A DNA stretch of 64,000 nt from Candidatus Tayloriibacteriota bacterium. GTDB taxonomy: Bacteria; Patescibacteriota; Minisyncoccia; Phycocordibacterales; UBA6065. The stretch lies in NCBI GenBank assembly GCA_016215405.1, contig JACRJQ010000002.1, positions 59,597-123,596 on the forward strand, in the 5' to 3' direction. A program made the translations under genes and the position numbers. Shown here piece after piece: positions 7,519 through 43,985 of this stretch. The number at the start of each line of letters is the position of its first letter. Positions within the stretch are counted from its first letter, which is position 1. The notes beneath the pieces were generated by a model. The model saw nothing but the letters and a program-made list of their open reading frames with translations. It searched no databases and had not been told where the DNA came from.

Positions 7519-7548
7519 GTCGCCTGCGCGACCCTTCTGCGTTTTGTC
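7519..7548 (-). terminator. intrinsic terminator after the ABC transporter gene
   Basis: GAAGGGTCGC-CTGC-GCGACCCTTC; on the minus strand it is followed by TTTTTATGC. Confidence 0.55.
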
Positions 7549-21164: not shown

Positions 21165-23015
21165 CTACGAGAGCACCGCCTTTATGCGCCTCACTCCCGC
21201 AGAGACGGCCTCTTCCTTTTGGATCTTGAAGCTTCCGAGAGCGCTGGTGTTCTCCACGTGCGGGCCGCCGCAGAACTCCTTCGAATAGGCGGAGTCGATA
21301 GAGTCGCCGATGTAATAGACGGAAACGACGTCGCCGTACTTATCGCCAAAGAAGTGGTAGGCGCCGGTCTTTAGGGCCTCGTCTTTCGGGAGCTCTACGC
21401 GATGGACCGGGAGGGCGGCTTTGATCTTGGCGTTCACTATGTCCTCTACCCTCTTTTTCTCTTCATCGGTCATCTTTGCGCCGTGGGTGAAGTCGAAGCG
21501 AAGCCTCTCGGGCGTTATATTCGATCCTTTCTGCGATACATGGTCTCCGAGGACTTCATGGAGCGCCTTGTGGAGGAGGTGGGTGGCGGTGTGGTATTTG
21601 AGCGACATCTCCGATGTGTCGCCGAGTCCGCCTTTGAACTTCGCCTCCGCGCCGGCGCGCGAGAGGTCCTGGTGCTTTTTGAATTCTTCGTCAAATTGAG
21701 TTTTCAATTCGCCAATTTTTTCACTTGAGAGAACAAAAGGTGTCTGCACCCTTTCACTTTGAATAATTTCAATCGCTAATTCAAATGGAAACCCATATGT
21801 TGTAAATAGATCTAGGAAAAAACGCCCGTCTAATTTAATCTTCTTTTCGGGTCCTGCGTCTCCGAAAGATGTAAGACTAGGGAAAGTCTTTTTGAGTTCC
21901 TTGAGCCCTTGATCTAAGGTTGCCTTAAACCTCACTTCTTCTTTTCGAAGAACAGTCTTTACTGTTTCTCCATTAAGATTCGGATAATGCGTTTGATAAG
22001 CGTTAACGTACTTCTCCACAATTTCAAGCCCAATATCAGCAGGAAGCATTAAATGTCCCATCTTAAATACAGCTCTTCGGAGAATTCGCCTCAAGACGTA
22101 ACCTTGATCTTTATTTGAGGGAACAACTCCATCTGATATAAGAAAGGTAGCGGTTCTAAGATGATCTGCAACTATTCGAGCTGACCTTTCATCATAATTC
22201 TTTGAATTCTTCCTAATTAAATCAATTATAGGAAGAAATACATCCGTTTCAAAAACATTCGTCTTTTTTTGTAAGACTGTGGCGAGACGTTCAAGGCCTG
22301 CGCCGGTATCGACGTTCCTCTTGGCGAGCTTCGACACGATCTTGCCGTCTTTTTTCTCGAATTCCATGAAGACGTCGTTCCAGATCTCGATGACCCTGCC
22401 CTCATCGTCCGCCTTATCGTATTCGGCCGGAGTCATATCGCCGAGACCGCTTTTGGTGATGTCATAGAACATCTCCGAGCACGGCCCGGTCGGACCTGTC
22501 CACGCGTCCTTACCCTTTACTGCCGGCCACCAGTTAGCGGAAGCATCTTTAAAATAGATTCTATTTTCGGGCACTCCTGCCGACACCCAGGCTTTTTTCG
22601 CCTCTTCGTCTCGAGGCGCATTCTCGTCGCCGGCGAACACAGTGACGTAGAGCCTTTTCGGGTCGAGCCCGAATCCTTCAGTCTTCGACGTCAAAAGCTC
22701 GTAGCTCCATTTGATCGCCTCCTCTTTGAAGTAGCTGCCGAGCGACCAGTTGCCGAGCATCTCGAAGAACGTCAGGTGCCGGTTGTCTCCGATATCGTCG
22801 ATGTCGCCGGTTCGGACGCATTTTTGGACGTCGGCGAGCCTGTCGCCCTGAGGATGCGGACGGCCCATGAGGTACGGGACCAAGGGCTGCATGCCCGCCG
22901 TGTTAAAGAGAACCGTTGGATCGTTCTCGGGCACGAGAGGAGCCGAAGGGATGATGGCGTGTCCCCTCTTTTCGAAAAATGCGAGGAACCTCCTGCGTAC
23001 TTCTGCGGATGTCAT
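21165..23015 (-). CDS. alaS: alanine--tRNA ligase, truncated form (catalytic + tRNA-binding + editing domains, no C-Ala domain)
   Basis: 616 aa; N-terminal FEKRGHAIIPSAPLVPENDPTVLFNTAGM; editing-domain HxxxH (HTATHLLHKALHEV) and CGGPHV motifs near the C-terminus. Confidence 0.9.
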   Translation of the reverse strand: MTSAEVRRRFLAFFEKRGHAIIPSAPLVPENDPTVLFNTAGMQPLVPYLMGRPHPQGDRLADVQKCVRTGDIDDIGDNRHLTFFEMLGNWSLGSYFKEEAIKWSYELLTSKTEGFGLDPKRLYVTVFAGDENAPRDEEAKKAWVSAGVPENRIYFKDASANWWPAVKGKDAWTGPTGPCSEMFYDITKSGLGDMTPAEYDKADDEGRVIEIWNDVFMEFEKKDGKIVSKLAKRNVDTGAGLERLATVLQKKTNVFETDVFLPIIDLIRKNSKNYDERSARIVADHLRTATFLISDGVVPSNKDQGYVLRRILRRAVFKMGHLMLPADIGLEIVEKYVNAYQTHYPNLNGETVKTVLRKEEVRFKATLDQGLKELKKTFPSLTSFGDAGPEKKIKLDGRFFLDLFTTYGFPFELAIEIIQSERVQTPFVLSSEKIGELKTQFDEEFKKHQDLSRAGAEAKFKGGLGDTSEMSLKYHTATHLLHKALHEVLGDHVSQKGSNITPERLRFDFTHGAKMTDEEKKRVEDIVNAKIKAALPVHRVELPKDEALKTGAYHFFGDKYGDVVSVYYIGDSIDSAYSKEFCGGPHVENTSALGSFKIQKEEAVSAGVRRIKAVLS

Positions 23016-23026
23016 AGATGCTTAAT

Positions 23027-24784
23027 CTACCTGTTTTTCGTCAGCTTTTCCAGCCTCTCTATATCCTTCTCTATAGACCGCAGCCCTTTCTTCCAGAAAT
23101 CCGGCTTCGTGACGTCTATGCCGATGGATTTGAATATATTCTCCGGCGAATCCGTCCCCCCCGCGGAAAGGAATCGGTTTATCTTGCCGAGGAAGCCCTT
23201 GTCCTTCTTGTACTCGGCGTAGAGCGCCTTCGATATGAGCTGTCCGAACGCGTAGGAGTAGACATAGAAGAATCGGCGGATATGGCTCCACTGGACGAAG
23301 AAGTTCCCGTCGATGTCCTTCATTCGGACCGCGGGCCCGAGGTATGCGGACATGTGCTCGTTCATGAGGGATCGGATCTCGTCTTTGGATATCTCCCCCT
23401 TCTCTCGTATCGCCCTATGGAGATCGGCCTCGAAGTTGAAGCAGGCGATCTGGCGGAAGATCGTCTGTATGTCGTCGTTTATCCTCTTGTGCAGGGCGAC
23501 GACCTTCTCCTCGTCGGAGAGGGTCTCGAACACCGATTCGAACACGAACGACTCGAAAAGGGTGGACGCGACCTCGGCCGTAGAGGTCGAATAGTGCTGA
23601 TACAGGGGCATAAGGGGCTTCGACATCTCCGTATGTATCGCGTGGCCCATCTCGTGAGCGAAGGTCATAACCTGATCGAACGCCTTCGTGTAGTTGAGGA
23701 GGACATAGGTAGGCATGCCGATATTTCCTGAGCAGTAGGCGCCCCCCGTCTTTCCCACCCTTGGATACACGTCTATCTGGCCCTTCTCGAGATAGCCGTC
23801 GAGGATCGAAAGGTATCGTTCGTCGACCGAGCCGAAGACCCGCCTGAGGGTCGCGACCGCCTCTTCGAAAGGCACTTCTCGCAGGTTCTCTCCGATGCCC
23901 ACCGCCCTGTCGGAATACTCGAGCGACGGAAGCTTGAGGAGCTTCGCTTTGAGCTCGTAGAACCTATGGCTTATGCCGAAACTGTCGGTCACGGCGTCGA
24001 CGAGCGCGAGCACGCTCTTCCTGTCGTTCTGATAGCCGAGTATGGTCTGGTCGTACGGCTCCTTGAACCCCCGCAGCTCGTCCCCTATCTTCTTGTCGCC
24101 TACGATGGCGTTGATCTCGCTCTCCGCGACCTCGCTTATGGATTCGAGCGCTTTCATGCACTTCTCGTGGAGCTCTCGGCGCTCCTTGAGGGGCGAGTCG
24201 TGGACCTTCGAGAGCGCTTCGAAGATCGGGAGCTTCTTGTCTCCGAGATCTATCGTGAGCCTGTTGAGGAGCTTCTCGGTGCCCACGACCCACTGCTCGT
24301 ATGCAGGGATCCTCTTGAGACCCAGGATCTTCTCTTCGGGCTCGGAGAGGTCGTGCTTCGCGCGCTCGAAGACGTTCTTGAGGAAATACCTGAAGGGAGC
24401 GAGCCTCTTGCTCTTGAGGAGCTTCTTTTGCGCTGCGGCGGGGATCTTCGCCAGAGCGAGCTCGAAGAATACGGTCCGGTTATCGTTCTTCTGGAGCCTT
24501 TCGAGTATCTGTGTCCTTTTCGCGCGCGCGACGGAGTCGCTCGCATCGAGGTCCTGGATGAAGCTGAAATACATATACCCTTTTGCCGGCGCAGGGTCGT
24601 TAAAGAGAGACTCATAATCGCGAAGCGCCTCGACGAGCTTCGTCTCGCTTTTGAGATAGCCGCGGTCAGTGCGATATTTCTTTTCGAACGCCGCATAGGC
24701 GCGCTCGACGGCCTTCATGTCTTTCTCGATCTGAGGGTCGTCATGGCTCTTATAGAGCAAACCGAGATTCCAAGTCGTTTTCAT
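23027..24784 (-). CDS. pepF: oligoendopeptidase F (M3B metallopeptidase)
   Basis: 585 aa with the zinc-binding HEMGH motif. Confidence 0.88.
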   Translation of the reverse strand: MKTTWNLGLLYKSHDDPQIEKDMKAVERAYAAFEKKYRTDRGYLKSETKLVEALRDYESLFNDPAPAKGYMYFSFIQDLDASDSVARAKRTQILERLQKNDNRTVFFELALAKIPAAAQKKLLKSKRLAPFRYFLKNVFERAKHDLSEPEEKILGLKRIPAYEQWVVGTEKLLNRLTIDLGDKKLPIFEALSKVHDSPLKERRELHEKCMKALESISEVAESEINAIVGDKKIGDELRGFKEPYDQTILGYQNDRKSVLALVDAVTDSFGISHRFYELKAKLLKLPSLEYSDRAVGIGENLREVPFEEAVATLRRVFGSVDERYLSILDGYLEKGQIDVYPRVGKTGGAYCSGNIGMPTYVLLNYTKAFDQVMTFAHEMGHAIHTEMSKPLMPLYQHYSTSTAEVASTLFESFVFESVFETLSDEEKVVALHKRINDDIQTIFRQIACFNFEADLHRAIREKGEISKDEIRSLMNEHMSAYLGPAVRMKDIDGNFFVQWSHIRRFFYVYSYAFGQLISKALYAEYKKDKGFLGKINRFLSAGGTDSPENIFKSIGIDVTKPDFWKKGLRSIEKDIERLEKLTKNR

Positions 24785-25381
24785 CTAGATGTATTTCTTT
24801 AATATCTGAAAATCTTCCTTCATCTGCCCTTTCATCCCTCCATTATAGAGGGCGACGGCAGGATGGTAGAGGGCGACCACCGTCACGTCGCCGTAGGGAG
24901 CAGAACCCTTGAATTCCTTCCCGTGTATCTTGGAGACGATCTGAAGCTCAGAGGCGAGCCCATACCTCTCGAATACGTATCTCATCGAATGCCTGCCGAG
25001 GGTAGCGATGACGCGTGGCTTCATGACGGCGATCTGTCGGTCGAGGAACGGCCCATAGAGCTCGATCTCGGCCTGCTCGGGATCCCTATTTCCCGGCGGC
25101 CTGTCTTTGACGAGATTCGTCACGTACACCGACTTGCGATCCATTCCGATAGAAGCGAGGAGCTCGTCGAGGACCCTTCCCGCCCTGCCGCAAAAAGGCT
25201 TGCCCGTCTTCGCCTCTGTCTCTCCCGGAGCCTCTCCTACGAACATGACGCTCGCTTCGTGATCCCCGTCGCCAATCACGGGAACATAGCCGTTCTCGGT
25301 CCTGTAGGCGTATAGGGGCGATAGGGCGAGAGCGGTCACCTCTTCCTTTATTTTCGCAAGCTCTTCGGCATTCGAAACCAT
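24785..25381 (-). CDS. uracil-DNA glycosylase, family 4
   Basis: GEAPGETEAKTGKPFCGRAGRVL motif; the stop directly abuts the pepF start. Confidence 0.85.
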   Translation of the reverse strand: MVSNAEELAKIKEEVTALALSPLYAYRTENGYVPVIGDGDHEASVMFVGEAPGETEAKTGKPFCGRAGRVLDELLASIGMDRKSVYVTNLVKDRPPGNRDPEQAEIELYGPFLDRQIAVMKPRVIATLGRHSMRYVFERYGLASELQIVSKIHGKEFKGSAPYGDVTVVALYHPAVALYNGGMKGQMKEDFQILKKYI

Positions 25382-25403
25382 ACCTGAGAGTATATAGCAA
25401 AAC

Positions 25404-25691
25404 TCACCCGCAAGGGTGAGTCTGGTCGAAGCATTGCTTCCCGCCGTTCATCACGAAATGGTCGAAGGCCTCGTTGTCCGTGGCCGACCTTCCGAGATGA
25501 AGCGAAGCGTAGTAGCGATTTATATCGCCGAGCGCCATTGCGAGCTGCTCGAGAAGCCTGTTGCGGGCGCGGAGATTGCGTATCTCCTGCATGAGCGCTT
25601 CTTCGGTGGCGAGAGGTTTGGGGCTCTCGAAGGGGACGATCTGAGCCGTCCCCGATCCTAAAGGTGGGTCTTGAAGAGCTGTCGAGGTCAT
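25404..25691 (-). CDS. hypothetical small coiled-coil protein
   Basis: The ORF-track 25404..25874 overlaps the MGMT gene in another frame; it was trimmed to the internal ATG at 25691, so the start is very uncertain. Confidence 0.3.
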   Translation of the reverse strand: MTSTALQDPPLGSGTAQIVPFESPKPLATEEALMQEIRNLRARNRLLEQLAMALGDINRYYASLHLGRSATDNEAFDHFVMNGGKQCFDQTHPCG

Positions 25692-25756
25692 GGGGTAAAG
25701 GTGGTTTACCCTATTCTCCTCCTCTGCCTCTTCGCGCGCCAGCGAGTTATGCACAC

Positions 25757-26053
25757 TTACGAGATCGCACCCTCCTTTCGCAAGAGCGCTTCTTTTGCCT
25801 TCGAGCCTTCTTTGCCTCCGCGGACCCCGTTGTATCCGCCGATCTTTCCGTCGGACCTCACCACGCGATGGCACGGTACGGACAGGTCCGAATTATTCGC
25901 CATGATCATGCCAACGGCGCGCGCGCCGCCCAAAGACCCCGCGCGCAGGGCGACCTCCGCATAGGAAAGCGTCTTTCCTTTCGGGATATCCCTCACGACC
26001 TGTAGCACCCGCTCCTTAAAAGAGCTTATCCGTCTTGTGGTTAGGTTCTTCAT
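25757..26053 (-). CDS. ogt: methylated-DNA--protein-cysteine methyltransferase, DNA-binding/active-site domain only
   Basis: 98 aa containing the PCHRVV active-site motif and a helix-turn-helix; it overlaps the stop of the upstream nuclease gene by 38 nt. Confidence 0.8.
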   Translation of the reverse strand: MKNLTTRRISSFKERVLQVVRDIPKGKTLSYAEVALRAGSLGGARAVGMIMANNSDLSVPCHRVVRSDGKIGGYNGVRGGKEGSKAKEALLRKEGAIS

Positions 26054-26915
26054 CTTTCTTAGTACGCTTCGGTTTAGGCTTCTCTTTCTTTTCAGCTCCT
26101 GTATCCCCCTCTTCGAGATCCTTCACGGACCTCTTCGAGAACTTCGACTCCACCTGTATGGCGAGCTTCCTGAAATTGCAGTAATCGCACGTCGGATCTG
26201 CCTTAGGGAGCTCGTCTTTGTCGAGGCACGCCTTCGCCCTTACGATAGCGGCGTCGACCCATGAGTCGTTTCCCTTGTACGGAATGAGGGTCACCTCGAA
26301 TTCGAGCTTGGCGTCGAAGGCCTTGCGGTCGCGGAGGCCGTTCGCATACACGAAATAGCCGGTGTCGGAGACCGTAAAGCCCTTCCGCCTCAAAAGCCAC
26401 TGATAGACCTCCATCTGCCTCTTGTAGCCGTCTTGCCACTCGGCGTCGAGATTCACCTTCTCGTCTTTCGACGTCGATTTGTAATCCACGACGATAAGCT
26501 CGCCCGCAGGATTGACCCAGACGTCGTCCACGGCGCCGCTGATGAGAAGACCGGTCTCCTTGTGGACGCACTGTATGCCTTCGAAGTTCTCGCGCCAGGT
26601 GTTCATCTCGGAATGAGCGAACGGGATCGCGTCTACTCCGTAGGTCTGCATAAGTGGATGGGCGGTCTTGGCCGCGCGATGCGCGTCGAACTCCTTCTTG
26701 AGGAGGTGGTCGACGGCTGAGTTGAGGTTGAAAGGAAACCCGCGAGGCCGCGCCACGCCGAGCTTGTTATCGAGGTAGAAGCACCTCTCGCATTCCATAA
26801 AGAGATCGAGCTTCGATCGGGAGAGCTTCCATTTCTTTCCAGGATAGTTCCAATCGGCAGAACGGATCGGTTTCGGCATGAAGTTGTTCATAGCTCTGGT
26901 TTCGCTTAGGCGCAA
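26016..26915 (-). CDS. Cas4-like / RecB-family PD-(D/E)xK exonuclease with Cys cluster (DUF83-like)
   Basis: VVDYKST...(E)..K nuclease motif, an N-terminal CxxC (ECERCFY) and a C-terminal C-x12-C-x2-C (CLDKDELPKADPTCDYC), the arrangement of the Cas4 Fe-S ligands. Confidence 0.7.
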   Translation of the reverse strand: MRLSETRAMNNFMPKPIRSADWNYPGKKWKLSRSKLDLFMECERCFYLDNKLGVARPRGFPFNLNSAVDHLLKKEFDAHRAAKTAHPLMQTYGVDAIPFAHSEMNTWRENFEGIQCVHKETGLLISGAVDDVWVNPAGELIVVDYKSTSKDEKVNLDAEWQDGYKRQMEVYQWLLRRKGFTVSDTGYFVYANGLRDRKAFDAKLEFEVTLIPYKGNDSWVDAAIVRAKACLDKDELPKADPTCDYCNFRKLAIQVESKFSKRSVKDLEEGDTGAEKKEKPKPKRTKKDEEPNHKTDKLF

Positions 26916-27739
26916 AGGTGGTCGATCTCGGCTAATACCTGTTTTATCTTGTTCGAAGGGATGCCGTAGCTTTCGAGTGAGTCTCTCCTATTGGCGACCT
27001 GCTTGCAGAGGACGAGCCCTGCGTCGAGAAGCGTCCTCTTCTCTGTATGGGTGAGGGTCGTAAGCGAGGTGAGCGGATGGAGGCCGGTATCGGAGACGAG
27101 GTCCTCGAGGCTTCCCTTTCGGGGATAGTTCCAGCCAACAAGCGAGAGCCCCTGGCACGAGGCGTAGCGGATGGCCGTATCGGTGAATTTGGTGTTGGTG
27201 AAGAGCTGGAAGAGCGTGATCTTGCGCTTCTTTCCGCCGTATTCGAACGTCTGCGTCTTGAGGTCGTCGTAGCGCGCCTTCACATAGAGAGCGACCTTGA
27301 GGTCGGATTTGAGGCCCGGCTCGTTATGGAACTTGGCTTCGACCATGACGAGCTCGGAGCCTTTCCACGCGACCACGTCGACCTCGTGCTCGACGCATCC
27401 GCCCTGCACTATCTGGCCGGTGAGCGCCTCGTAGCCGTGAGCCTTGAATATCTCCGCTATGAATTTCTCGAACGGAAAGCCGTTAGGACCCAAGTCCGCG
27501 ATAGCGCGCTTCATTGAATAGCGCGCGGCGACCGGCTGGGCCGAGTGCCTGAGAAAGGAGAAGGCGTGGCGATATATCTCCGTCGTCGTCATGCCGGATA
27601 CAAGTTCCCTCTCTATGTGACGCAGTATGTCTTCGGCCTGCTCTTTCGCGGCTCCGGCCTTTCTCAGCGAATTGACGAGCTTTTGGGGATCGAACGCTTC
27701 CTGCTCTCCGGTCGATTTGGTGACGAAAATAGGCGACAT
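26906..27739 (-). CDS. ATP-cone domain fused to Mrr-type (PD-(D/E)xK) restriction endonuclease catalytic domain
   Basis: N-terminal ~85 aa ATP-cone (VTKSTGEQEAFDPQKLVNSLRKAG...VAARY), then an Mrr_cat-like region (FEKFIAEIFKAHGYE...VDVVAWKGSELVMVEAKFH...GLSLV). The Arg-rich 67-aa extension in the ORF track was removed because a terminator hairpin lies inside it. It overlaps the Cas4-like gene by 10 nt. Confidence 0.72.
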   Translation of the reverse strand: MSPIFVTKSTGEQEAFDPQKLVNSLRKAGAAKEQAEDILRHIERELVSGMTTTEIYRHAFSFLRHSAQPVAARYSMKRAIADLGPNGFPFEKFIAEIFKAHGYEALTGQIVQGGCVEHEVDVVAWKGSELVMVEAKFHNEPGLKSDLKVALYVKARYDDLKTQTFEYGGKKRKITLFQLFTNTKFTDTAIRYASCQGLSLVGWNYPRKGSLEDLVSDTGLHPLTSLTTLTHTEKRTLLDAGLVLCKQVANRRDSLESYGIPSNKIKQVLAEIDHLCA

Positions 27740-27760
27740 GCGGATAGTATAGCAAAGAAA

Positions 27761-27800
27761 AGCGGCGGTCCGAATCAGGACCGCCGCCCGCGTTTTTTTT
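27761..27800. terminator. bidirectional hairpin terminator between mnmA and the ATP-cone gene
   Basis: GCGGCGGTCC-GAATCA-GGACCGCCGC, flanked by T8 on the top strand and TTTTCTTTG on the minus strand. Confidence 0.6.
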
Positions 27801-27813
27801 AGGTCTCGGATCC

Positions 27814-27948
27814 TTATCGCGAGATCGGCGCCGAGGCCATCTTCACGAATGTCGCAGCGGTCGCTCCCAAAGCGACGAGAAGCGAGACGCCCGCAGAGAC
27901 GGCGTCGCCGAGCCCGACCGCGCGATAGAGCGTCGCGCACGTAAGCAT
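27814..27948 (-). CDS. possible 44-aa two-helix hydrophobic peptide
   Basis: Manual translation gives MLTCATLYRAVGLGDAVSAGVSLLVALGATAATFVKMASAPISR; it lies between the mnmA stop and the terminator, with a TATAAT-like box upstream; it may be spurious. Confidence 0.2.
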   Translation of the reverse strand: MLTCATLYRAVGLGDAVSAGVSLLVALGATAATFVKMASAPISR

Positions 27949-28000
27949 GTAGCTTACGACGAAGACGAGGAGCAGCACCACATAGGGTTTCACCTCTAAA

Positions 28001-29095
28001 TTATACCACTATTCCGCCTCCAAGACAAGTCTCTCCGTCGTAGACGACGAGCGACTGCCCGGAAGCGGCCATGATCGGCCTGTCGAACTTGAACACGGCT
28101 TCGCCTTCGCCTGTGACCTGAACGCGGCAAGGCACAAGCTCGCCGAGGTGGCGTATGCGAGCGAGGAGCGCTGTCGATCCGTTAGGATCTCCCGATATCC
28201 AGTTGCAGGAAGAGACGCGATAAGCCGTCTTCTCCGTTGAGAGTGCGCCGTCGGAAGACCTATGGGACACGACCACCTCGTTTCTCGAAAGGTTCCTCGA
28301 TACCACATAGTAGGGACGGCCGTCCGCAGTCTTGTTCGCGACCGTGAATCCGTGCCGCTCCCCTACGGTCAAAAACGCGGCGCCGTCATGCTCTCCTATG
28401 ACCGTCCCCTCCTCGTCGAGCACCTTGCCCTTTTTCAGCTCTATGTAATGGGAGAGGAATTCCTTGATGTCGACTTTCCCTATGAAGCAGAGGCCCTGGC
28501 TGTCTCTCTTCTCTGCGACCGGAAGGCGAAATCTCGCGGCGAGCCCCCTCGTCTCGCTCTTCGCCATGCCGCCCACCGGAAAAAGAATCCTGACGAGCTC
28601 TCGCTGTGAGAGCGTCCAAAGGAAGTAGGATTGGTCTTTCGACCTATCGGCGCCCATCCCCAACTCTACCGAGGCGAAACCTCGGTAATCGTTACCGAGG
28701 TTTCGCCTCGGTAAGACCTGCGCGTAATGCCCTGTCGCGATATAGTCGGCGCCACGAGCCATCGCCCAATCGAAGAAGCCGCCGAACTTGACGTACCGGT
28801 TGCACATGACGTCGGGGTTCGGCGTCCGTCCGGCCTTGTATTCTGAGACCATGTAATCGACGACCTCTTTCTTGTATTCCTTCTCCAGGTCTAGTGTGAG
28901 GAACGGTATGCCGAGGTGCACGCAGACGCGCATGGCGTCGAGCCTGTCCTCTCTCCACGTGCACTCCATCCAATCGGGCTGCCAGACCCTTATAAAGACT
29001 CCAGTCACATCGAAGCCTTGCTCTTTGAGAAGAGCAGCAGAGACGGAGGAATCGACTCCCCCCGACATGCCGACATAGACTTTCTTTCCGTTCAT
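28001..29095 (-). CDS. mnmA: tRNA-specific 2-thiouridylase MnmA
   Basis: PP-loop SGGVDSS and catalytic Cys residues. Confidence 0.9.
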   Translation of the reverse strand: MNGKKVYVGMSGGVDSSVSAALLKEQGFDVTGVFIRVWQPDWMECTWREDRLDAMRVCVHLGIPFLTLDLEKEYKKEVVDYMVSEYKAGRTPNPDVMCNRYVKFGGFFDWAMARGADYIATGHYAQVLPRRNLGNDYRGFASVELGMGADRSKDQSYFLWTLSQRELVRILFPVGGMAKSETRGLAARFRLPVAEKRDSQGLCFIGKVDIKEFLSHYIELKKGKVLDEEGTVIGEHDGAAFLTVGERHGFTVANKTADGRPYYVVSRNLSRNEVVVSHRSSDGALSTEKTAYRVSSCNWISGDPNGSTALLARIRHLGELVPCRVQVTGEGEAVFKFDRPIMAASGQSLVVYDGETCLGGGIVV

Positions 29096-29121
29096 GGAGC
29101 TAACCTATCAGAGGCGGTGCC

Positions 29122-30150
29122 TTATCTCAAATACCTATTCTTGTTGACGAGGTGCCCGTCATGGGTCTCAGCATAATGCATCTCGCCCTTGTCGTCCGAA
29201 AGATAGAAGTAGTAAGGAGTCTTTAAGGGGTGGATGGTCGCCTTTATGGATGCGAGGCCGGGATTCGAGATCGGGGTCGGCGGGAGGCCTTTGTAGACAT
29301 ATGTGTTATACGGCGAATCTATCTTGAGGTCGTCGAGAGTGAGGAGCGCGCTGTTCCCCTTCCCGTTCACGAAGGAGAACGCCGCATCGACTTGCAAAGG
29401 CATCCCCTCGTCGAGCCGTTTCCAAAGGATCCCTGCGATGATCTGGCGAGACAGGTCGGTGCGAGCCTCCTCCTCTATGATCGAAGCCATCTTTATAACG
29501 TCGCTTCGCGATTTTCCGAAGGCCGCTATCTCCGGCGCGAGGGCCTCTATGCGCCGGTCGAAATTCTCGAGCATCGCAAGGACGACTTCCTGCGCCCGAA
29601 CGTTGGGCAAGAAGAGATATGTATCAGGGAAAAGATACCCTTCCTTCGGGCCGGCGAGCCTTCGGAATTCGAGAGGGTCGAACCTCGTGAACGAGCCGGA
29701 CTTCTCGAAGAGGGCCGCTATCTCGGCCGAGGACGTGCCCTCAGGTATGGTGATACGCACCCCTTCGAGGCCGTACGAACCGTGGGAGAATCTCCAGGCG
29801 AGGGCGATCGCGCTCTCTTTCCTTTCGAGAAGGTAGTCTCCCGCGACGAGACCGCGCGAACCGCCGAAAAGGACGACGAGAGACTTGAATATGAAGGGAG
29901 AGCGCACTGCGTCCGTAAGCGCTAGCCTCTTTGCCATGCCCGAGAGCGTCTCTCCATCTTCGACTGTCACGAGCTCGCCCTTTGGAAACCCTGAAGGGGC
30001 CGAGAACAGGAGGGATACGAGAGCGATGAATACGATCGTCGTCGCGATAGCCGGAATGAAAATCGCCTTTTTGAAAGGGCGAGAGGGCTTTTGGTCCTGG
30101 TTCACGGACGAATACTCAGGCTGGGATATGTAACGTAAAGGACCAGACAT
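29122..30150 (-). CDS. mltG: endolytic murein transglycosylase MltG (YceG-like)
   Basis: An N-terminal TM helix followed by a YceG domain. Confidence 0.8.
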   Translation of the reverse strand: MSGPLRYISQPEYSSVNQDQKPSRPFKKAIFIPAIATTIVFIALVSLLFSAPSGFPKGELVTVEDGETLSGMAKRLALTDAVRSPFIFKSLVVLFGGSRGLVAGDYLLERKESAIALAWRFSHGSYGLEGVRITIPEGTSSAEIAALFEKSGSFTRFDPLEFRRLAGPKEGYLFPDTYLFLPNVRAQEVVLAMLENFDRRIEALAPEIAAFGKSRSDVIKMASIIEEEARTDLSRQIIAGILWKRLDEGMPLQVDAAFSFVNGKGNSALLTLDDLKIDSPYNTYVYKGLPPTPISNPGLASIKATIHPLKTPYYFYLSDDKGEMHYAETHDGHLVNKNRYLR

Positions 30151-30153
30151 ATC

Positions 30154-31407
30154 CTATGTAGGGAGATTGAACGGAGCGTCCGCGCGCTTCGACGGGATAC
30201 GCTTGAGGCCCGGGGTCTTTACGGCGCTGCCTGGGAAATGATAGAGCGTCGCAAGCTCTTCCGTGTTGAGTATCATGATAGGCCTACGCGGTATGTCAGT
30301 GAAAGTGTACGGCGGATGGAAATACGATCGGGCTCGATAGTATTCGAAGAGCTTCGACTTCCAGTACGCAAGCTTTTTGCCGCTCTTGTCCTGCCACGGA
30401 TACTCGAATTCCGCCGCGGCGGGTGCGATGCTGTTGAAATTGTTCGCTCCGAACGGACGAAACGAGCCCTTTATGATACCCACCGAGAAGCCGCCACGGC
30501 CCTTTGGGATCACGTTTATACCGCGGATGCCGACGTCGAGGCCGTATTTTCCGATAGACCTCTCGATGACCTCGATAGACTCCTTCTGCCCGGGCGTGAG
30601 CCTCTCCATATGGAACGTCTCGGTGCCGTCCTCTTTCTTCTCCATGACGCCTTTCGCGATCTTCTTTATCTCTGCCTTCGCCGCCTCGACCCACGGATCC
30701 TCCTGCCTCTTGTTGAAGTGGTTCTTCTCCGCCGTATGGGCGCGAGCGATGAACTGGAACCAGATCTGATCCTCTTTCTTCACCGAACCCATTACCTCGA
30801 TAAGCGACGCCAAAGGATCGACCTTGAGCTCTTCGTCCGGATCGTCGGAGAGGCCGTAGTCGACATAAGTCTTTATCGGATACGGGTCGGGCTTTATGAA
30901 CCTGTATTCCGCCGCGTAGATATCGTACTTGTCCATGTTCTTCGCGACCTTCTCTGTATAGTCCTCGACCTCGTGTATGGCGACGTCAGGATACGAGCCG
31001 TAGATGTTCGCCATGAGGAAGTTCTTTTGGCTCTCGAAGCACCAGATGAAGAATCTGATCTCGCCGTCTATGGAGCAAAGCTCGAGGGAGCACCACGGGC
31101 GAGCCTTGCCGTCCCAATAGCGCTCGATCGGGGTTCCCTCACCACCCGTCTGAATAAGGGCGTTCAAGACGAGCTCCATGGCGGCCGGCGACTTAAAGGT
31201 CTCTGCGGGGAGCTTTACCTCGAGGACGGCCTTCTTTTGCCTCATGATCCAATCGGTGCGGGTATACCTCACCCAAACGGTCCAAGCGTATTCGAGTATC
31301 ACGATAGGCACCCAGATGACCGCGGTGTAGACGATCCAACGAAAGGTCTCTGGCAAGACTACGTTGAGGGTGAAAGCGGAGAAGCCTGTGAGGAGATTGG
31401 AAAGCAT
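30154..31407 (-). CDS. hypothetical membrane protein
   Basis: The ORF-track start at 31674 would overlap the upstream gene and its terminator; it was trimmed to the ATG at 31407. Two N-terminal TM helices precede a large domain with no recognisable motifs. Confidence 0.5.
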   Translation of the reverse strand: MLSNLLTGFSAFTLNVVLPETFRWIVYTAVIWVPIVILEYAWTVWVRYTRTDWIMRQKKAVLEVKLPAETFKSPAAMELVLNALIQTGGEGTPIERYWDGKARPWCSLELCSIDGEIRFFIWCFESQKNFLMANIYGSYPDVAIHEVEDYTEKVAKNMDKYDIYAAEYRFIKPDPYPIKTYVDYGLSDDPDEELKVDPLASLIEVMGSVKKEDQIWFQFIARAHTAEKNHFNKRQEDPWVEAAKAEIKKIAKGVMEKKEDGTETFHMERLTPGQKESIEVIERSIGKYGLDVGIRGINVIPKGRGGFSVGIIKGSFRPFGANNFNSIAPAAAEFEYPWQDKSGKKLAYWKSKLFEYYRARSYFHPPYTFTDIPRRPIMILNTEELATLYHFPGSAVKTPGLKRIPSKRADAPFNLPT

Positions 31408-31450
31408 AATACCCGCTAATGATACAAGATAGGCCGCTCTCCCGCAAAGC

Positions 31451-31476
31451 AAAAGCCGCGCTTTCGCGCGGCTTTT
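31451..31476. terminator. bidirectional hairpin terminator
   Basis: AAAAGCCGCGC-TTTC-GCGCGGCTTTT. Confidence 0.6.
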
Positions 31477-31478
31477 CG

Positions 31479-32510
31479 CTAGGACGCCATCGAGTACTTC
31501 CCTTCTTTGTCTTTCTTGAAATATTTCGGATTCTGGAGATTTACGAGTATGGTGTTCTCCTTTACGTATCGCTCCTTGAGCACCTTGTCTATCACTTCCT
31601 TCTTTGTGAGAGGGCCGTGCTTCTCGAGGACCTTCTTTATGACGTCTTTGACGACTCCCGACATATAACCCCATTCGGAGAGTGCGTAGAGCCCGCGGCC
31701 GACCAGGACGAATCGAGGGTCCTTTATGAGCTCGTTATGAGTCGTCGCGACGTGAGCCTTCTTGTTGAACATCTTCTCGATCTGCTTTGCGACTTCGCGG
31801 AAATGTATAGGCGAGCCGTGCTTTCGGATGACGAGGAACGCGTAATCGCGCATGCCCTTCGCCTTTATGTTCGGAGAGTGGGAGACGCCCCATTCGCCGA
31901 GAGGGTTCTTGCCTACCTTCTTCGAGAGCGAGAGCCATCGCTTCAATATCTCGTCGTTGCGGTACTGGTCGTTGAGGCCTTCGATGTGGTTGAGGAAAGT
32001 ATCGATCATCTCCGACTCCGGGATGATATCGTCGTCCTTGAGGTTCTTGTAGAGCTTCTTGAGGGCATCCTCTACCTTCTTGGAGGTGCCTTCGTCTACA
32101 TGCCAGCGATGCTTGAAATGATCGTCTTCTTTCTGCCACTTGAACGTCCTTCCGAGAACGAGGAGGAAGTAGACGTGATTCTGTATCGACAGGTCTTTCG
32201 AGACCGAGTCGAGGAGGTCCTCTTCGGCGAGGACGCCTCCCATGGATTTCATCATCTCCTCAAGCTCCTTGAAAGCGTGGATCTGCGACTCGTATTCCTT
32301 CGATTTCTGTATGTTCGCTATGGCGTAGTTCTCGATCTGGCGGACGCGCTCACGGGTTATACCGTAGGTCTTGCCGATAGCCTCGAGGGTCATCTTCTCA
32401 GGATCCTTTCCGAGGCCGTAACGCTTGGTTATCACTTCCTGCGCGCGCTCAGGGAGGCTTTTGAGGAGGGCCTTTACGACCTGTTTAGGCTTGATCGTGA
32501 GATTCGTCAT
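31479..32510 (-). CDS. sigma-70 region-4 HTH domain protein with C-terminal HARE-HTH-like domain
   Basis: N-terminus LPERAQEVITKRYGLGKDPEKMTLEAIGKTYGITRERVRQIENYAI is a region-4 HTH with no regions 1-3. The C-terminus HGSPIHFREVAKQIEKMF...VLVGRGLYALSEWG resembles a HARE-HTH. Confidence 0.6.
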   Translation of the reverse strand: MTNLTIKPKQVVKALLKSLPERAQEVITKRYGLGKDPEKMTLEAIGKTYGITRERVRQIENYAIANIQKSKEYESQIHAFKELEEMMKSMGGVLAEEDLLDSVSKDLSIQNHVYFLLVLGRTFKWQKEDDHFKHRWHVDEGTSKKVEDALKKLYKNLKDDDIIPESEMIDTFLNHIEGLNDQYRNDEILKRWLSLSKKVGKNPLGEWGVSHSPNIKAKGMRDYAFLVIRKHGSPIHFREVAKQIEKMFNKKAHVATTHNELIKDPRFVLVGRGLYALSEWGYMSGVVKDVIKKVLEKHGPLTKKEVIDKVLKERYVKENTILVNLQNPKYFKKDKEGKYSMAS

Positions 32511-41988: not shown

Positions 41989-43248
41989 CTACCTCGCTTC
42001 GCCCAAATACGGCACAGAAAGGCGTTTCGACGATCCCCTCGGCATAAAAAGAGCTTTCTTCTCCCTTCTCCTCTCGCGATGGAGGGAGCGGGAGCTCGAA
42101 GCCATATGGACGAGGCTCTTCCCGTACTTCTTGTTGATCCTATCGACCGCTTCGAGCACCTTGCCTCCCTTCTCCGCCGCCCGCGCTCCCCCGAAGAGAT
42201 CCTCCTGAACGGCCTCTTCCGGGACCAGGCCGCAGAGGATCGCTCCCGTCGCGCGATAGAGGCGGCCCCGTTCGAATATCTCGTCGAAAGCTTTTTTCGC
42301 CTCCCTTACGATCTGGAACGAGCCGTTCGAGGGCAGAGAGAGCTTTCGCGAAGCGTTCGCATACGAGAGATCCTTGGTCTTGAGATAGACGGAGACGTCC
42401 TTGGCATAGAGGCCGAGCTCGCGGGCCCTCCGGCACGCGCCCTCGAGGTTCTTCGACAGCTCGGAAAATACGTACGAAGAATCGTCGCTCGCCGGAAAGA
42501 ACGTCCTTGTCTTCATGATAGACCTTTGAGGCTCGCTCCCCGTCGCGACTGGATGGACCGACACCCCGTTAAGCTCGAGATGCATCTCTTCTAGAGGCTT
42601 CGAGAAGCTCTCGCTCACCCATGCCGCAGGCTTTGAAGCGAGGTCGAGGGCCGTCGTTATCCCCTTCTTTCGCAGAGATATCGCCGTCGCAGAACCTATG
42701 CCCCAGACCTTATCTACGGGAGTCTTGCCAAGCAAAGAGGTCACATCTTCAGGACATACGATCGTGAGGCCGTCCGGCTTCTTCGATTTAGAAGCCATCT
42801 TCGCGAGGGATTTCGTCGAGGCGAGGCCGAGCGACACGGATATCCCAAGCTCTTTCCCGATCTCGCCCTTTAGGCGCGAGAGCACGGGCAAGGGATCCTT
42901 CTTAAATCCCGGCACGTCCGTGAAATCGGCGAAGCACTCGTCGATGGAATACTCCTCGACGACGTCGGTGTAGCGCCTCACGATATCCATCATCCGCTTC
43001 GAGAACACGGCATACGATTCATAGTCTGAGTCCACCACCGCGACCTGCGGGAACTGTCGGCGTATCTGGAATATGGGCATGGCGCGAGTGATGCCGAGCG
43101 CTTTCGCCTCGTAGGACATCGCCGAGGCGATGCCGCGCTCCTGGCCCGTTACGACCGGACGCCCGCGAAGCCTCGGGTCCTTCGCCGCCTCCACGGAGAC
43201 GAAGAACGCGTCGCCGTCGAGATGCATGATGTATCTTCGTCCCTTCAT
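41989..43248 (-). CDS. dinB: DNA polymerase IV (Y-family translesion polymerase)
   Basis: MHLDGDAFFVSVE and the catalytic SIDECFAD motif. Confidence 0.85.
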   Translation of the reverse strand: MKGRRYIMHLDGDAFFVSVEAAKDPRLRGRPVVTGQERGIASAMSYEAKALGITRAMPIFQIRRQFPQVAVVDSDYESYAVFSKRMMDIVRRYTDVVEEYSIDECFADFTDVPGFKKDPLPVLSRLKGEIGKELGISVSLGLASTKSLAKMASKSKKPDGLTIVCPEDVTSLLGKTPVDKVWGIGSATAISLRKKGITTALDLASKPAAWVSESFSKPLEEMHLELNGVSVHPVATGSEPQRSIMKTRTFFPASDDSSYVFSELSKNLEGACRRARELGLYAKDVSVYLKTKDLSYANASRKLSLPSNGSFQIVREAKKAFDEIFERGRLYRATGAILCGLVPEEAVQEDLFGGARAAEKGGKVLEAVDRINKKYGKSLVHMASSSRSLHRERRREKKALFMPRGSSKRLSVPYLGEAR

Positions 43249-43541
43249 GTATATTTGCGTATGACTGCGATCACTACCGCCTCGACTTTCGCGCCCTGCT
43301 TTGAGAGAGAGTCGAAACGGACCATCTTAAACTCTCCGTCGTCTACGGCGATCACTATATCCATCTCCTTCGGCGTCTTTGACCTATCGACGATGACGAG
43401 GTCGCCTTCGAGTATCCCGGCATCGCGCATCGAATCGGTCGCGGCGCGAAGCATAAAGGAAGCCTCCTTGTTCTCAACAAGATAATCGTCTAGAGACATG
43501 GTATCGAGAGCGCCGTCTTCGTCGTGTGTGCGAAAACCCAT
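43245..43541 (-). CDS. UmuD/LexA-like S24 peptidase domain protein
   Basis: 98 aa with the Ser (AATDSMRDAGI) / Lys (FKMVRF) dyad; there is a 4-nt ATGA overlap with dinB. Confidence 0.72.
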   Translation of the reverse strand: MGFRTHDEDGALDTMSLDDYLVENKEASFMLRAATDSMRDAGILEGDLVIVDRSKTPKEMDIVIAVDDGEFKMVRFDSLSKQGAKVEAVVIAVIRKYT

Positions 43542-43597: not shown

Positions 43598-43668
43598 TGG
43601 ACCTAGGGGGAATCGAACCCCCGCCTCGTCAATGCGAATGACGCGTCGTACCACTAGACTATAGGCCC
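43598..43668 (-). tRNA. tRNA-Ala (anticodon CGC)
   Basis: Cloverleaf with acceptor GGGCCUA/UAGGUCC containing a G3:U70 pair; anticodon loop UUCGCAU. Confidence 0.75.
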
Positions 43669-43689
43669 GTTAAGGGACAGTATCCCTTG

Positions 43690-43763
43690 TGCGCCCTGGA
43701 AGATTCGGACTTCCGGCCTCTCGCGTGTGAAGCGAGCGCTCTGACCGACTGAGCTAAGGACGC
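43690..43763 (-). tRNA. tRNA-Val (anticodon CAC)
   Basis: Acceptor GCGUCCU/AGGGCGC; anticodon loop UUCACAC. Confidence 0.75.
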
Positions 43764-43769
43764 TCTAAG

Positions 43770-43840
43770 TGGACCTACCGGGAATCGAACCCGGCACTCA
43801 TCCATGCCATGGATGCGTATTACCGATATACTATAGGCCC
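43770..43840 (-). tRNA. tRNA-Ala (anticodon GGC)
   Basis: The acceptor again has G3:U70; anticodon loop AUGGCAU. Confidence 0.75.
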
Positions 43841-43912
43841 TCGCGGGATATATCTTACTACAAAGTTTGATAATTTGAAGCTTTTAAGCTATATTATCGC
43901 AGTCAGAAAAGC

Positions 43913-43985
43913 GGGCCCTTAGCTCATCTGGTAGAGCACCTCATTTGCAATGAGGGGGTGGCAGGTTCGAGTCCTGTAGGGTCCA
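43913..43985 (+). tRNA. tRNA-Ala (anticodon TGC)
   Basis: GGGCCCU acceptor with G3:U70; anticodon loop UUUGCAA; T-loop TTCGAGT. Confidence 0.8.

Follow-up and report, generated by a model that had tools for sequence, protein, structure and literature searches.

Does a nuclease that carries an ATP-cone, and that stands at the head of a row of DNA-repair-type genes, serve phage defense, DNA repair or the nucleotide economy of the cell? The question is raised by a locus within a 64-kb stretch of DNA (hereinafter the window), whose first gene, A, encodes such a fusion. Nearly all work on ATP-cones concerns ribonucleotide reductases and NrdR, and the family of A joins the cone to an intact nuclease. 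An earlier note on this DNA had proposed that A and the adjacent nuclease gene B form a nucleotide-pool-sensing module for either anti-phage defense or regulated DNA-damage processing.

Organization of the locus

Gene A (26906..27739, minus strand; 277 aa) combines an ATP-cone, an AF1548-type PD-(D/E)xK nuclease domain and a C-terminal (HhH)2-like domain. On the same strand it is followed by gene B (26016..26891; 291 aa), coding for a RecB-family PD-(D/E)xK nuclease of the Cas4/Dna2/Exo5 fold, a gene for a single-domain MGMT/Ogt-type alkyltransferase (25757..26053; 98 aa), the small ORF D (25404..25691; 95 aa from ATG 25691) and a gene for a family-4 uracil-DNA glycosylase (UDG; 24785..25381; 198 aa). 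All five open reading frames of the earlier note are present where it placed them. Its description of them as tightly packed is correct for the 38-nt overlap between the end of B and the start of the MGMT gene, but not for the 10-nt overlap of A and B: in the NCBI record and in homologues B starts at ATG 26891 rather than TTG 26915, leaving a 14-nt gap, and the MGMT gene and ORF D are 65 nt apart if the latter starts at ATG 25691. Nor does close packing single these genes out as an operon. The minus strand carries 49 of the 62 genes called by a crude ORF-based procedure across the window, neighbors on one strand stand a median of about 30 nt apart, and 40% of the gaps measure 25 nt or less; hence the spacing of the five genes is the background of a largely one-stranded region.

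The co-directional run that contains the genes from A to UDG ends downstream with a gene for a pepF-like M3 peptidase (23027-24784, minus strand), which follows the UDG gene with a 0-nt gap, and, 11 nt further, with alaS (21165-23015, minus strand), both recognized by Pfam. Upstream of A lies mnmA, the gene for the tRNA 2-thiouridylase (28001..29095, minus strand; Pfam tRNA_Me_trans, E=3e-72), beyond a gap of 261 nt. A terminator scan detected in this gap a GC-rich, terminator-like hairpin (27760..27789, annotated on the minus strand) whose A-tract and T-tract flanks would allow it to act bidirectionally. The scan gave it a 12-bp stem with nine GC pairs, and the sequence was also read directly; its predicted RNA fold has an energy of -25 kcal/mol (z=-3.2), and it lies 21 nt upstream of the ATG of A. 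The hexamer TATACT (27746-27751) stands 6 nt ahead of the same ATG, and might be part of a promoter giving A a leaderless start. A transcript probably begins at A, right after the hairpin, and proceeds through B, MGMT, ORF D and UDG; it probably also reaches further into pepF and alaS. At the Rfam gathering threshold the window yielded five tRNAs only, none of them inside the 261-nt gap, where neither a riboswitch nor any other RNA element was found. A 59-aa hydrophobic ORF in the gap is probably not a gene, having relatives in 0 of 135 related loci and no family match.

Domain architecture of gene A

The fusion of an ATP-cone to a Mrr_cat nuclease claimed in the earlier note is borne out, as both Pfam profiles score above their cutoffs: the cone at residues 5-79 (27503..27727, minus strand; PF03477, 34.5 bits against 25.8) and the PD-(D/E)xK core at residues 88-201 (27137..27478, minus strand; PF04471, 27 bits against 21). 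The helical (HhH)2-like C-terminal domain (residues ~207-277; 26909..27121, minus strand) is a probable nucleic-acid binder that probably acts without sequence specificity; within it the Pfam profile AF1548-like_C scores just under its cutoff on residues 236-273. The assignment of A to the AF1548-like/Mrr_cat nucleases rests on the profile match, on homology to a solved member (PDB 1Y88, AF1548, which aligns to residues 92-273 with E=5e-34) and on the catalytic residues. From CPR to Bacteroidota, E119, D121, E134 and K136 do not vary in any of the 11 cross-phylum and 59 Paceibacteria sequences compared, which argues that catalysis is retained. Their AF1548 counterparts, D38/E51/K53, were predicted to be catalytic in the 2007 GOS paper (PMC1821046), the one source located that gives AF1548 a predicted identity, namely a restriction-type nuclease.

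The N-terminal region of A has the β-hairpin plus four-helix fold of the cones of NrdR and NrdA. Its closest matches are NrdR cones, and a PHROG for the N-terminus of the ribonucleotide reductase large subunit also matches A (E=1e-4); a PDB search with the cone alone as a single sequence gave nothing significant (NrdR, E=0.65), and the assignment rests on profile and fold. Conserved cone positions in A include K8, G11, F16, K20, T52 and I55. The canonical 'KR' motif, by contrast, does not keep its arginine, A having K-S; the NrdR of E. coli probably lacks this arginine as well.

One might ask if A acts chiefly as a nucleotide-responsive regulator that binds DNA, an analogue of NrdR whose nuclease fold has a scaffolding function. 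The likeness of its cone to those of NrdR, the HhH-like, probably DNA-binding tail and the position of A at the head of operons in several phyla all agree with such a role, but the strict invariance of the four catalytic residues in every sequence compared makes it very unlikely. That A is a nucleotide-gated nuclease is plausible; whereas its domains, fold and catalytic residues are shown, ligand binding, gating, substrate and physiological role are inferred.

A is 100% identical to a Candidatus Taylorbacteria protein encoded on a 186-kb contig. The family to which it belongs was counted at 5,432 and at 7,522 clusters of 90% identity; at E<=1e-30 it contains 580 clusters at 50% identity, nearly all with proteins of 270-290 aa. 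The family is catalogued, large and stable in length, and A is an unremarkable member of it; a search of the library at hand on AF1548 and on ATP-cone nucleases recovered no functional or biochemical study of the family.

Gene B and the repair-type genes

The placement of B among Cas4/RecB-like PD-(D/E)xK nucleases holds at the level of the RecB family, with its Cas4/Dna2/Exo5 fold, but is not supported for Cas4 proper. B has the family fold together with the D..(D/E)xK and QxxxY motifs, and matches the Pfam profile PDDEXK_1 (E=2e-13). Its Cas4 matches are weak: TIGR00372 gives 29 bits (cutoff 65), PF01930 has no match to this protein at E<=0.01, and PADLOC Cas4 models reach E=1.5e-8 at best, although some homologues of B carry a precomputed PF01930 match. 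Canonical Cas4 and AddB proteins bind their Fe-S cluster through a C-x(n)-C-x2-C-x5-C pattern. B differs in spacing: instead of the four-Cys Cas4 pattern previously ascribed to it, it has five invariant cysteines, arranged as C34-x2-C37 ... C222-x12-C235-x2-C238. The protein ends in a Lys-rich disordered tail. The absence of a CRISPR array was confirmed, in that TRF and direct-repeat searches of the 64-kb window detected no CRISPR-like repeats; this result, along with neighbors that are A, MGMT and UDG, led us to reject a CRISPR association of B.

For the MGMT gene the active-site domain proposed earlier is well supported by PF01035 (DNA_binding_1; E=9e-27), by TIGR00589 (73.1 bits against 46.4) and by the PCHR acceptor-cysteine motif, which reads 'VPCHRVV' in the translation; at 98 aa the protein lacks the N-terminal domain of the two-domain Ogt proteins. 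The MGMT gene also overlaps or abuts B in two further loci, L138 and L142, with a true overlap in L138. More generally, MGMT is present in 23 of the 40 loci with B versus 2 of the 49 without it (Fisher p=2e-8, uncorrected for phylogeny). B and the one-domain MGMT are a tightly coupled pair.

ORF D has no Pfam, NCBIfam, PADLOC or PHROG match, and tblastn recovered it from no more than 4 of the 135 loci; it is lineage-specific. The identification of the last gene as a family-4 UDG is upheld by TIGR00758 (185.7 bits against 125.3) and PF03167 (E=3e-31), while the archaeal equivalog NF040953 scores 199, under its cutoff of 250. Classical family-4 enzymes use four cysteines as ligands of a [4Fe-4S] cluster; this 198-aa protein holds a single one, in 'KPFCGRAG', and hence lacks the four-Cys cluster pattern.

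Conservation and synteny

We compared 135 related loci; the Paceibacteria loci in this sample are phylogenetically related, and the counts are accordingly not independent events. The best 80 loci kept from a metagenome scan with a cross-phylum alignment, which was meant to reach distant relatives, were all close Paceibacteria relatives; they served the statistics but added no breadth. Throughout the 135 loci the gene order is fixed as mnmA-A-(B)-(MGMT)-(UDG)-(pepF)-alaS. The most constant neighbors are mnmA, upstream of A in 87/97 loci, and alaS, downstream in 70/89; yceG accompanies A in 76/97, UDG in 50/89, B, downstream, in 40/89 and MGMT in 25/89. B, MGMT, UDG, pepF and alaS occur all together in 9 of the 89 loci, and only alaS or none of these genes was found downstream of A in 3 to 8 loci per set. 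Median identity over 56 shared loci is 52.6% for A, 54.6% for MnmA, 53.5% for AlaRS and 62.4% for B; A diverges at the rate of MnmA and AlaRS.

The pairing of A with B did not prove to be a conserved one. B directly adjoins A in 25 of the 89 loci and is absent from 55% of A loci, the interval between them often holds unrelated genes, and B was never found beside A outside Paceibacteria-type genomes. Given the frequency of B set against those of mnmA and alaS, the A-B pair is a facultative synteny within one class. Whether the B-MGMT-UDG repair cassette occurs between A and alaS varies among Paceibacteria.

These patterns bear on the possibility that A, B, MGMT and UDG constitute a dedicated DNA-damage-processing operon, in which UDG and MGMT would recognize damaged bases, A and/or B would incise or resect the DNA, and the cone would tie incision to the dNTP supply for repair synthesis. 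The immediate neighbors of A in this lineage are DNA-repair genes, which favors such a role: four repair-type genes stand in a row behind the terminator, the set recurs in the same order in many Paceibacteria (as the counts for the complete set and for B show), B and MGMT are strongly coupled, and a gene for a DinB-type polymerase converges on A in Saccharimonadia-type loci (L047-L049). (HhH)2 domains, too, are common in repair proteins. Against this, many loci keep A while lacking B, MGMT or UDG, in L138 and L142 unrelated genes (for DUF7282, MgtC and an uncharacterized 239-aa protein) stand between A and B, and Nomurabacteria have B with no A in its vicinity. Essentially a single clade supplies the evidence, and plain synteny may explain it. 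The alternative of regulated DNA-damage processing put forward in the earlier note may hold but is confined to one lineage; a dedicated repair operon we consider doubtful, though by no means negligible.

Assessment of a role in phage defense

The anti-phage reading holds that A and B together sense a change in the nucleotide pool, for instance dNTP depletion or a shift in ATP upon infection, and then cleave DNA. The Cas4 fold of B and the 14 nt between the two genes in the window are in its favor. However, the neighbors are mnmA, yceG, pepF, alaS and leuS rather than a defense island, and the conservation of A and B equals that of aminoacyl-tRNA synthetase genes, with a fixed position across the 135 loci, which is the opposite of the patchy, fast-evolving character of defense genes. 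Relatives of A were absent from 50,697 phage records searched by tblastn and from 2.9 million viral contigs covered by a profile-guided scan, while a plasmid search gave two matches, both inside metabolic operons. Comparison with PADLOC produced no real system-model match for A, its best hits being domain-level only (ZorD nuclease domain, E=6e-4; CARF_PDDEXK, E=1.7e-3), and only weak Cas4 models for B (E>=1.5e-8). The frequent absence of B from A loci, and its restriction to Paceibacteria when beside A, are also at odds with a two-gene system. We further rejected A as a Mrr-type (type IV) restriction endonuclease, since it has no Mrr_N match, its N-terminus is an ATP-cone and its neighbors are housekeeping or metabolic genes. 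Neither a defense role nor an obligate A+B module is supported, and we regard the anti-phage reading as extremely improbable.

Gene neighborhoods in other phyla

A cross-phylum set of 12 Bacteroidota and Chlamydiota loci, which is small and includes two of near-identical layout, places A directly upstream of or near a different group of partners: a P-type ATPase (8/12), a beta-CASP MBL protein (7/12), a TP-family enzyme together with PRPP synthetase (5/12) and PPK2 (3/12). B, MGMT or UDG adjoined A in 0 of these 12 loci, nor was any other repair gene its neighbor there, which again tells against a repair operon. The phosphorylases near A are of the archaeal type, with TIGR02645 above its cutoff and AMP_phos just under. 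In another bacterial lineage (L053-L055) the homologue of A follows genes for R15P isomerase, RuBisCO and an AMP-phosphorylase-like enzyme, a small YbaB-like gene separating it from these genes of the RuBisCO-III AMP pathway. In Bradyrhizobium the trio of MBL, PRPP synthetase and TP genes is induced by microoxia (PMC6515984).

The association of the family outside this class with beta-CASP RNase, AMP/thymidine phosphorylase, PRPP-synthetase-like enzyme, PPK2 and P-type ATPase, or with the RuBisCO-III AMP pathway, argues for a role of A in turnover rather than restriction. The link to salvage is borrowed from these phyla, as the 64-kb window contains no AMP phosphorylase, RuBisCO or beta-CASP partner, and a salvage model leaves unexplained the P-type cation ATPase, the commonest partner of A in Bacteroidota.

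The same metabolic context weighs against A being a structure-specific nuclease, either a Holliday-junction resolvase or a NucS/EndoMS-like enzyme, that acts in recombination or replication restart with the ATP-cone as accessory regulator. Housekeeping-like conservation at a single locus would suit such an enzyme, and JGI labels three relatives (P0072, P0269, P0323) 'Holliday junction resolvase'. We assume that this label is automatic; A resembles Hjc less closely than it does many restriction-type and CARF-nuclease cores, and conserved recombination neighbors such as ruvAB or recA were absent from the lineages examined. We hence deem a structure-specific role unlikely.

Proposed function and its implications

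Taken as a whole, the explanation that we favor, and to which we attach moderate confidence, is that A is a core-like, adenine-nucleotide-gated nuclease for nucleic-acid turnover and not for restriction of foreign DNA, lying in an ordinary, vertically inherited stretch of the chromosome of a member of Candidatus Taylorbacteria (Patescibacteria/Paceibacteria). NrdR ATP-cones work via nucleotide-dependent changes of oligomeric state (PMC12051234; bioRxiv 10.1101/2025.03.28.645925). By analogy with NrdR and ribonucleotide reductase, adenine nucleotides (ATP versus dATP, or ATP versus ADP/AMP) would bind the cone of A and shift its oligomeric state, and this shift would switch the non-specific nuclease on or off. 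The physiological task of A may then be nucleic-acid turnover tied to the adenylate or deoxynucleotide economy, i.e. salvage or recycling, perhaps overlapping with repair. B and MGMT, with UDG, could form a cassette for the repair of base damage and for end processing.

A more specific version, which we put forward tentatively, is that nucleases of the A family open a route recycling nucleic acid to pentose bisphosphate or adenylate, with the beta-CASP RNase, the archaeal-type AMP phosphorylase, the PRPP-synthetase-like enzyme and PPK2 as partners. The family would be near-core in salvage-dependent CPR bacteria, and would stand beside or near genes of hypoxia or energy-stress islands in Bacteroidota and Chlamydiota. 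If true, no ATP-cone would have been known before to control a nuclease, and nucleotide salvage would have an unrecognized entry step.

A new nucleotide-sensing defense module would have mattered to the phage-defense field, and the evidence points away from it. The present interest of A lies in a family of hundreds to thousands of clusters that is conserved in Paceibacteria like aminoacyl-tRNA synthetases. CPR bacteria depend on salvaged nucleotides, and a nuclease tied to ATP/dATP could help them to balance the breakdown of DNA and RNA against repair and the supply of nucleotides. Its association with AMP-phosphorylase-type operons in other phyla turns this into a hypothesis that is concrete and open to testing. 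A second, small lead, for DNA repair in CPR bacteria, is the tight coupling between a one-domain MGMT and a nuclease of the Cas4 fold.

Comparison with known systems

Among the Cas4/Dna2/Exo5/MGME1/AddB nucleases, B is set apart from Cas4 by its score under the equivalog cutoff, by the CxxC...C-x12-CxxC spacing of its five invariant cysteines and by the lack of cas genes or a CRISPR array nearby; its tail is rich in Lys, and its coupled partner is a one-domain MGMT, not Cas1/Cas2. A shares the Pfam Mrr_cat catalytic family with Mrr, but is without the Mrr_N winged helix, evidence of modification dependence or a restriction-modification or defense context, and has a very different distribution. 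Can2/Card1 of type III CRISPR systems likewise join a sensor to a PD-(D/E)xK nuclease; in these the sensor is CARF, whereas A has an ATP-cone, no cyclic-oligoadenylate synthase or CRISPR context, and genes that are housekeeping-like in synteny and conservation and absent from mobile elements. The archaeal AF1548 (Archaeoglobus fulgidus; PDB 1Y88; Pfam Mrr_cat + AF1548-like_C), a structural-genomics target whose function was never determined, has only ~20 residues before its nuclease domain and hence, unlike A, no ATP-cone. What A has in common with NrdR and ribonucleotide reductase is the ATP-cone, which HMM and fold both place in its first 80 residues, and the expected logic would be the same, a nucleotide inducing a change of oligomer that switches the output domain; in A, however, that output is a nuclease with an HhH domain rather than a Zn-ribbon repressor or a reductase.

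Domain architecture and transcriptional arrangement

All five minus-strand genes listed in the earlier note are present. The first encodes A, a 277-aa protein (26906-27739, minus strand) that is 100% identical to a protein from a Candidatus Taylorbacteria (Patescibacteria) MAG. Pfam profiles recover the proposed fusion of an ATP-cone (residues 5-79, 34.5 bits against a cutoff of 25.8) to an Mrr_cat domain (residues 88-201, 27 bits against 21), followed by an AF1548-like_C match slightly under its cutoff (residues 236-273); residues 92-273 also resemble AF1548, for which a crystal structure exists (PDB 1Y88, E=5e-34). E119, D121, E134 and K136 are invariant across 59 Paceibacteria sequences and 11 sequences from several phyla, and correspond to the D/E/K residues predicted to be catalytic in AF1548 (PMC1821046). 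A combines an NrdR-type ATP-cone, an intact PD-(D/E)xK site and an HhH-like tail, with a near-invariant 'GPxGFPFE' linker joining cone and nuclease.

The following gene encodes B, a 291-aa RecB-family nuclease (26016-26891, minus strand; PDDEXK_1, E=2e-13). Its assignment as a nuclease is borne out, but its resemblance to Cas4 itself is weak (PADLOC, 1.5e-8; TIGR00372, 29 bits against a cutoff of 65). As B starts at the ATG at 26891 in both the NCBI record and its homologues, A and B are separated by 14 nt and do not share the 10-nt overlap claimed earlier. Further downstream on the same strand are a one-domain, 98-aa MGMT with a PCHR acceptor motif (25757-26053; PF01035, E=9e-27), a small ORF (ORF D) that has no family match in profile searches and whose ATG lies 65 nt from MGMT, and a family-4 UDG (24785-25381; TIGR00758, 185.7 bits against 125.3); both enzyme identifications hold. 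With a single cysteine, the UDG lacks the four that ligate the [4Fe-4S] cluster of classical family-4 enzymes, and may be one of a cluster-free subgroup. No CRISPR-like repeats were found across the whole 64-kb window, in line with the earlier note, which saw no CRISPR array.

The close packing of these genes is real, but its reading as a dedicated operon is not sustained. Same-strand gaps have a median of ~30 nt throughout the window, with 40% of them at or below 25 nt, so the packing reflects the genome background; the minus strand carries 49 of the 62 crude ORF-based gene calls. The co-directional run continues unbroken past the UDG into a pepF-like peptidase gene (gap 0) and alaS (gap 11), and the sole large gap of the block (261 nt) is upstream of A. 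A strong GC-rich hairpin with A-tract and T-tract flanks (27760-27789, minus strand; -25 kcal/mol, z=-3.2) resembles a bidirectional terminator; it ends 21 nt before the ATG of A, and is followed by a TATACT located 6 nt ahead of that ATG (whole stretch 27745-27812, minus strand). We infer from these elements that mnmA transcription probably stops at the hairpin and that A opens a new transcript, which may be leaderless. The mnmA-A gap also contains a very hydrophobic, GTG-start ORF of 59 aa (27814-27993, minus strand), which is probably not a gene, since none of the 135 related loci contains a relative and it matches no family.

Conserved gene neighborhoods in Paceibacteria

To analyze gene neighborhoods, loci with an A homologue were gathered from GTDB species representatives (55) and metagenomes (80), homologues of the window's neighboring genes were located in them by tblastn, and counts were made over loci with enough flank. 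Upstream of A, mnmA is found in 87 and yceG in 76 of 97 loci; downstream, of 89 loci, 70 have alaS, 50 the UDG, 25 MGMT and only 40 B, which is directly adjacent to A in 25. Gene order is invariably mnmA-A-(B)-(MGMT)-(UDG)-(pepF)-alaS. This constant order with variable presence indicates that A is part of a fixed housekeeping block, in which B, MGMT and the UDG are facultative members of the A-alaS interval. Reverse sampling from B homologues yielded three loci, two of which show the same block with one to three unrelated genes separating A and B (a 239-aa protein in one; DUF7282, an unannotated 119-aa ORF and MgtC in the other). In the third, from Nomurabacteria, B lies elsewhere, its neighbors being a 5'-nucleotidase and an RNase-H-fold exonuclease, and A is not close by.

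What is tightly coupled here is B-MGMT, a unit gained and lost together: of the 40 loci that have B, 23 also have MGMT, versus 2 of the 49 that lack B (Fisher p=2e-8, uncorrected for phylogeny), and the two genes overlap or abut (window, 26016-26053; L138:6818-6849; L142:6825-6827). In CPR bacteria the nuclease and the alkyltransferase may function as a pair. The placement of this repair cassette, B-MGMT and the UDG, downstream of A in the window's genome would accord with a contribution of A to damage processing, a role that we consider rather unlikely.

An anti-phage defence function for A together with B was also proposed earlier. Across 56 loci with A, MnmA and AlaRS, identity to the window proteins has medians of 52.6% (A), 54.6% (MnmA) and 53.5% (AlaRS), with 62.4% for B; such levels are those of core genes under purifying selection, unlike genes in an arms race. 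Relatives of A are absent from 50,697 phage records and 2.9 million viral contigs, plasmid matches number only two, the PADLOC match to A does not go beyond domain-level similarity, and the surrounding genes encode tRNA-modification, cell-wall, peptidase and aminoacyl-tRNA synthetase functions. Taken together, these observations make a defence role highly improbable, and we reject it.

Several other features of the region were noted. A 506-aa protein without a Pfam match (30154-31674, minus strand) adjoins yceG in at least 39 of 55 loci; its homologues, in the same synteny block, carry a precomputed DUF8128 match. The AlaRS proteins (tRNA-synt_2c and tRNA_SAD domains) are 616-624 aa long (window, 21165-23015, minus strand; L138:10806-12665; L142:10379-12253), well under the ~870 aa typical of bacteria, and thus seem to lack the C-terminal C-Ala domain in these CPR genomes. 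The block with mltG(yceG), mnmA and alaS (21165-31674) may resemble the Bacillus subtilis region mnmA...alaS-ruvX-mltG; if this likeness is right, A occupies an ancient synteny position held elsewhere by another small nuclease, RuvX/YqgF. The window also encodes, in a region covering 41989-43541 and 43598-43985, a DinB-type Y-family polymerase (tblastn E=2e-34 to the polymerase of locus L047); an ORF of 98 aa, which by eye resembles UmuD/LexA, precedes the polymerase gene and overlaps it by 4 nt, and a cluster of four tRNA genes adjoins it.

Gene neighborhoods of the wider A family

The A family comprises 5,432 and 7,522 90%-identity clusters with two queries, and 580 50%-identity clusters at E<=1e-30 or 1,652 at E<=1e-3, with almost all members 270-290 aa long. 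Outside Paceibacteria its surroundings are entirely different. In two plasmid-borne copies, one on a Pontibacter megaplasmid and one on a Criblamydia plasmid, the genes that come directly after A, in the same orientation, encode an MBL-fold/beta-CASP hydrolase, a thymidine-phosphorylase-family protein and a ribose-phosphate pyrophosphokinase. Of 12 loci from Bacteroidota and Chlamydiota, seven have the beta-CASP gene after A and five the phosphorylase/PRPP-synthetase pair; a P-type cation ATPase is nearby in eight (overlapping the A stop codon in three) and PPK2 in three, with Sporocytophaga alone lacking all these partners. A Cas4-like, MGMT or UDG neighbor occurs in none of the 12, which, with the patchy presence of B in Paceibacteria, speaks against an obligate module of A and a Cas4-like nuclease.

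A heads or adjoins a recurrent gene set in L148:6001-12855, L150:6001-12855, L136:1972-6597 and L137:8995-13602, which comprises an aCPSF1-like beta-CASP MBL hydrolase, an archaeal-type thymidine/AMP phosphorylase, a PRPP-synthetase-like protein, a ~229-aa protein, PPK2 and the P-type ATPase. The set is often accompanied in its vicinity by phosphoketolase, acetate kinase, glgP, 2-hydroxyacid dehydrogenase or PFK. The A-linked set in Bacteroidota and Chlamydiota looks like an energy- or hypoxia-stress island; in Bradyrhizobium diazoefficiens, microoxia induces both the transcripts and the proteins of the MBL/PRPP-synthetase/TP-family trio (bll3115-3117; PMC6515984).

Three loci from an unclassified bacterial lineage (L053:158-3550, L054:3083-7850, L055:3445-8197) place A a short way downstream of an AMP-phosphorylase-like gene, with a small YbaB-like gene between the two and an inositol-monophosphatase-family gene after A. 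In L054 and L055 the run begins further upstream, with R15P isomerase (IF-2B family) and RuBisCO large subunit ahead of the phosphorylase gene; these three genes correspond to the AMP (pentose-bisphosphate) pathway of archaeal type. The phosphorylases of these and the Bacteroidota/Chlamydiota contexts are 37% identical, and both pass the archaeal-type TIGR02645 profile while falling slightly under the AMP_phos equivalog cutoff. Saccharimonadia-type loci have A in convergent orientation with a DinB-type polymerase gene. In independent phyla A is recurrently associated with adenylate and nucleotide recycling enzymes.

Functional implications

A is an ordinary member of a family already catalogued in databases, by a Pfam architecture, by two NCBI names ('ATP cone domain-containing protein', 'restriction endonuclease') and by a solved structure of the nuclease part; literature searches found no functional study of it. 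Of the earlier interpretation, the nucleotide-sensing nuclease remains plausible, while a defence system and an obligate A-B module find no support. RNR ATP-cones undergo nucleotide-driven changes of oligomeric state, and by analogy adenine nucleotides bound to the cone of A would change its oligomeric state. A comparable mode of action is described for NrdR ATP-cones in two reports (PMC12051234; bioRxiv 10.1101/2025.03.28.645925). In A, such a change would probably switch a sequence-nonspecific nuclease, with a role in nucleic-acid turnover tied to the nucleotide or energy economy. This role would fit the dependence of CPR bacteria on salvaged nucleotides. A tentative proposal, in which we have low confidence, is that nucleotide salvage starts with an ATP-cone-gated nuclease that is conserved from CPR bacteria to Bacteroidota.

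A resembles Can2 and Card1 in its possible mode of action, that of a ligand-gated PD-(D/E)xK nuclease. This likeness is no evidence of membership; they differ from A in sensor domain, genomic context and evolutionary pattern.
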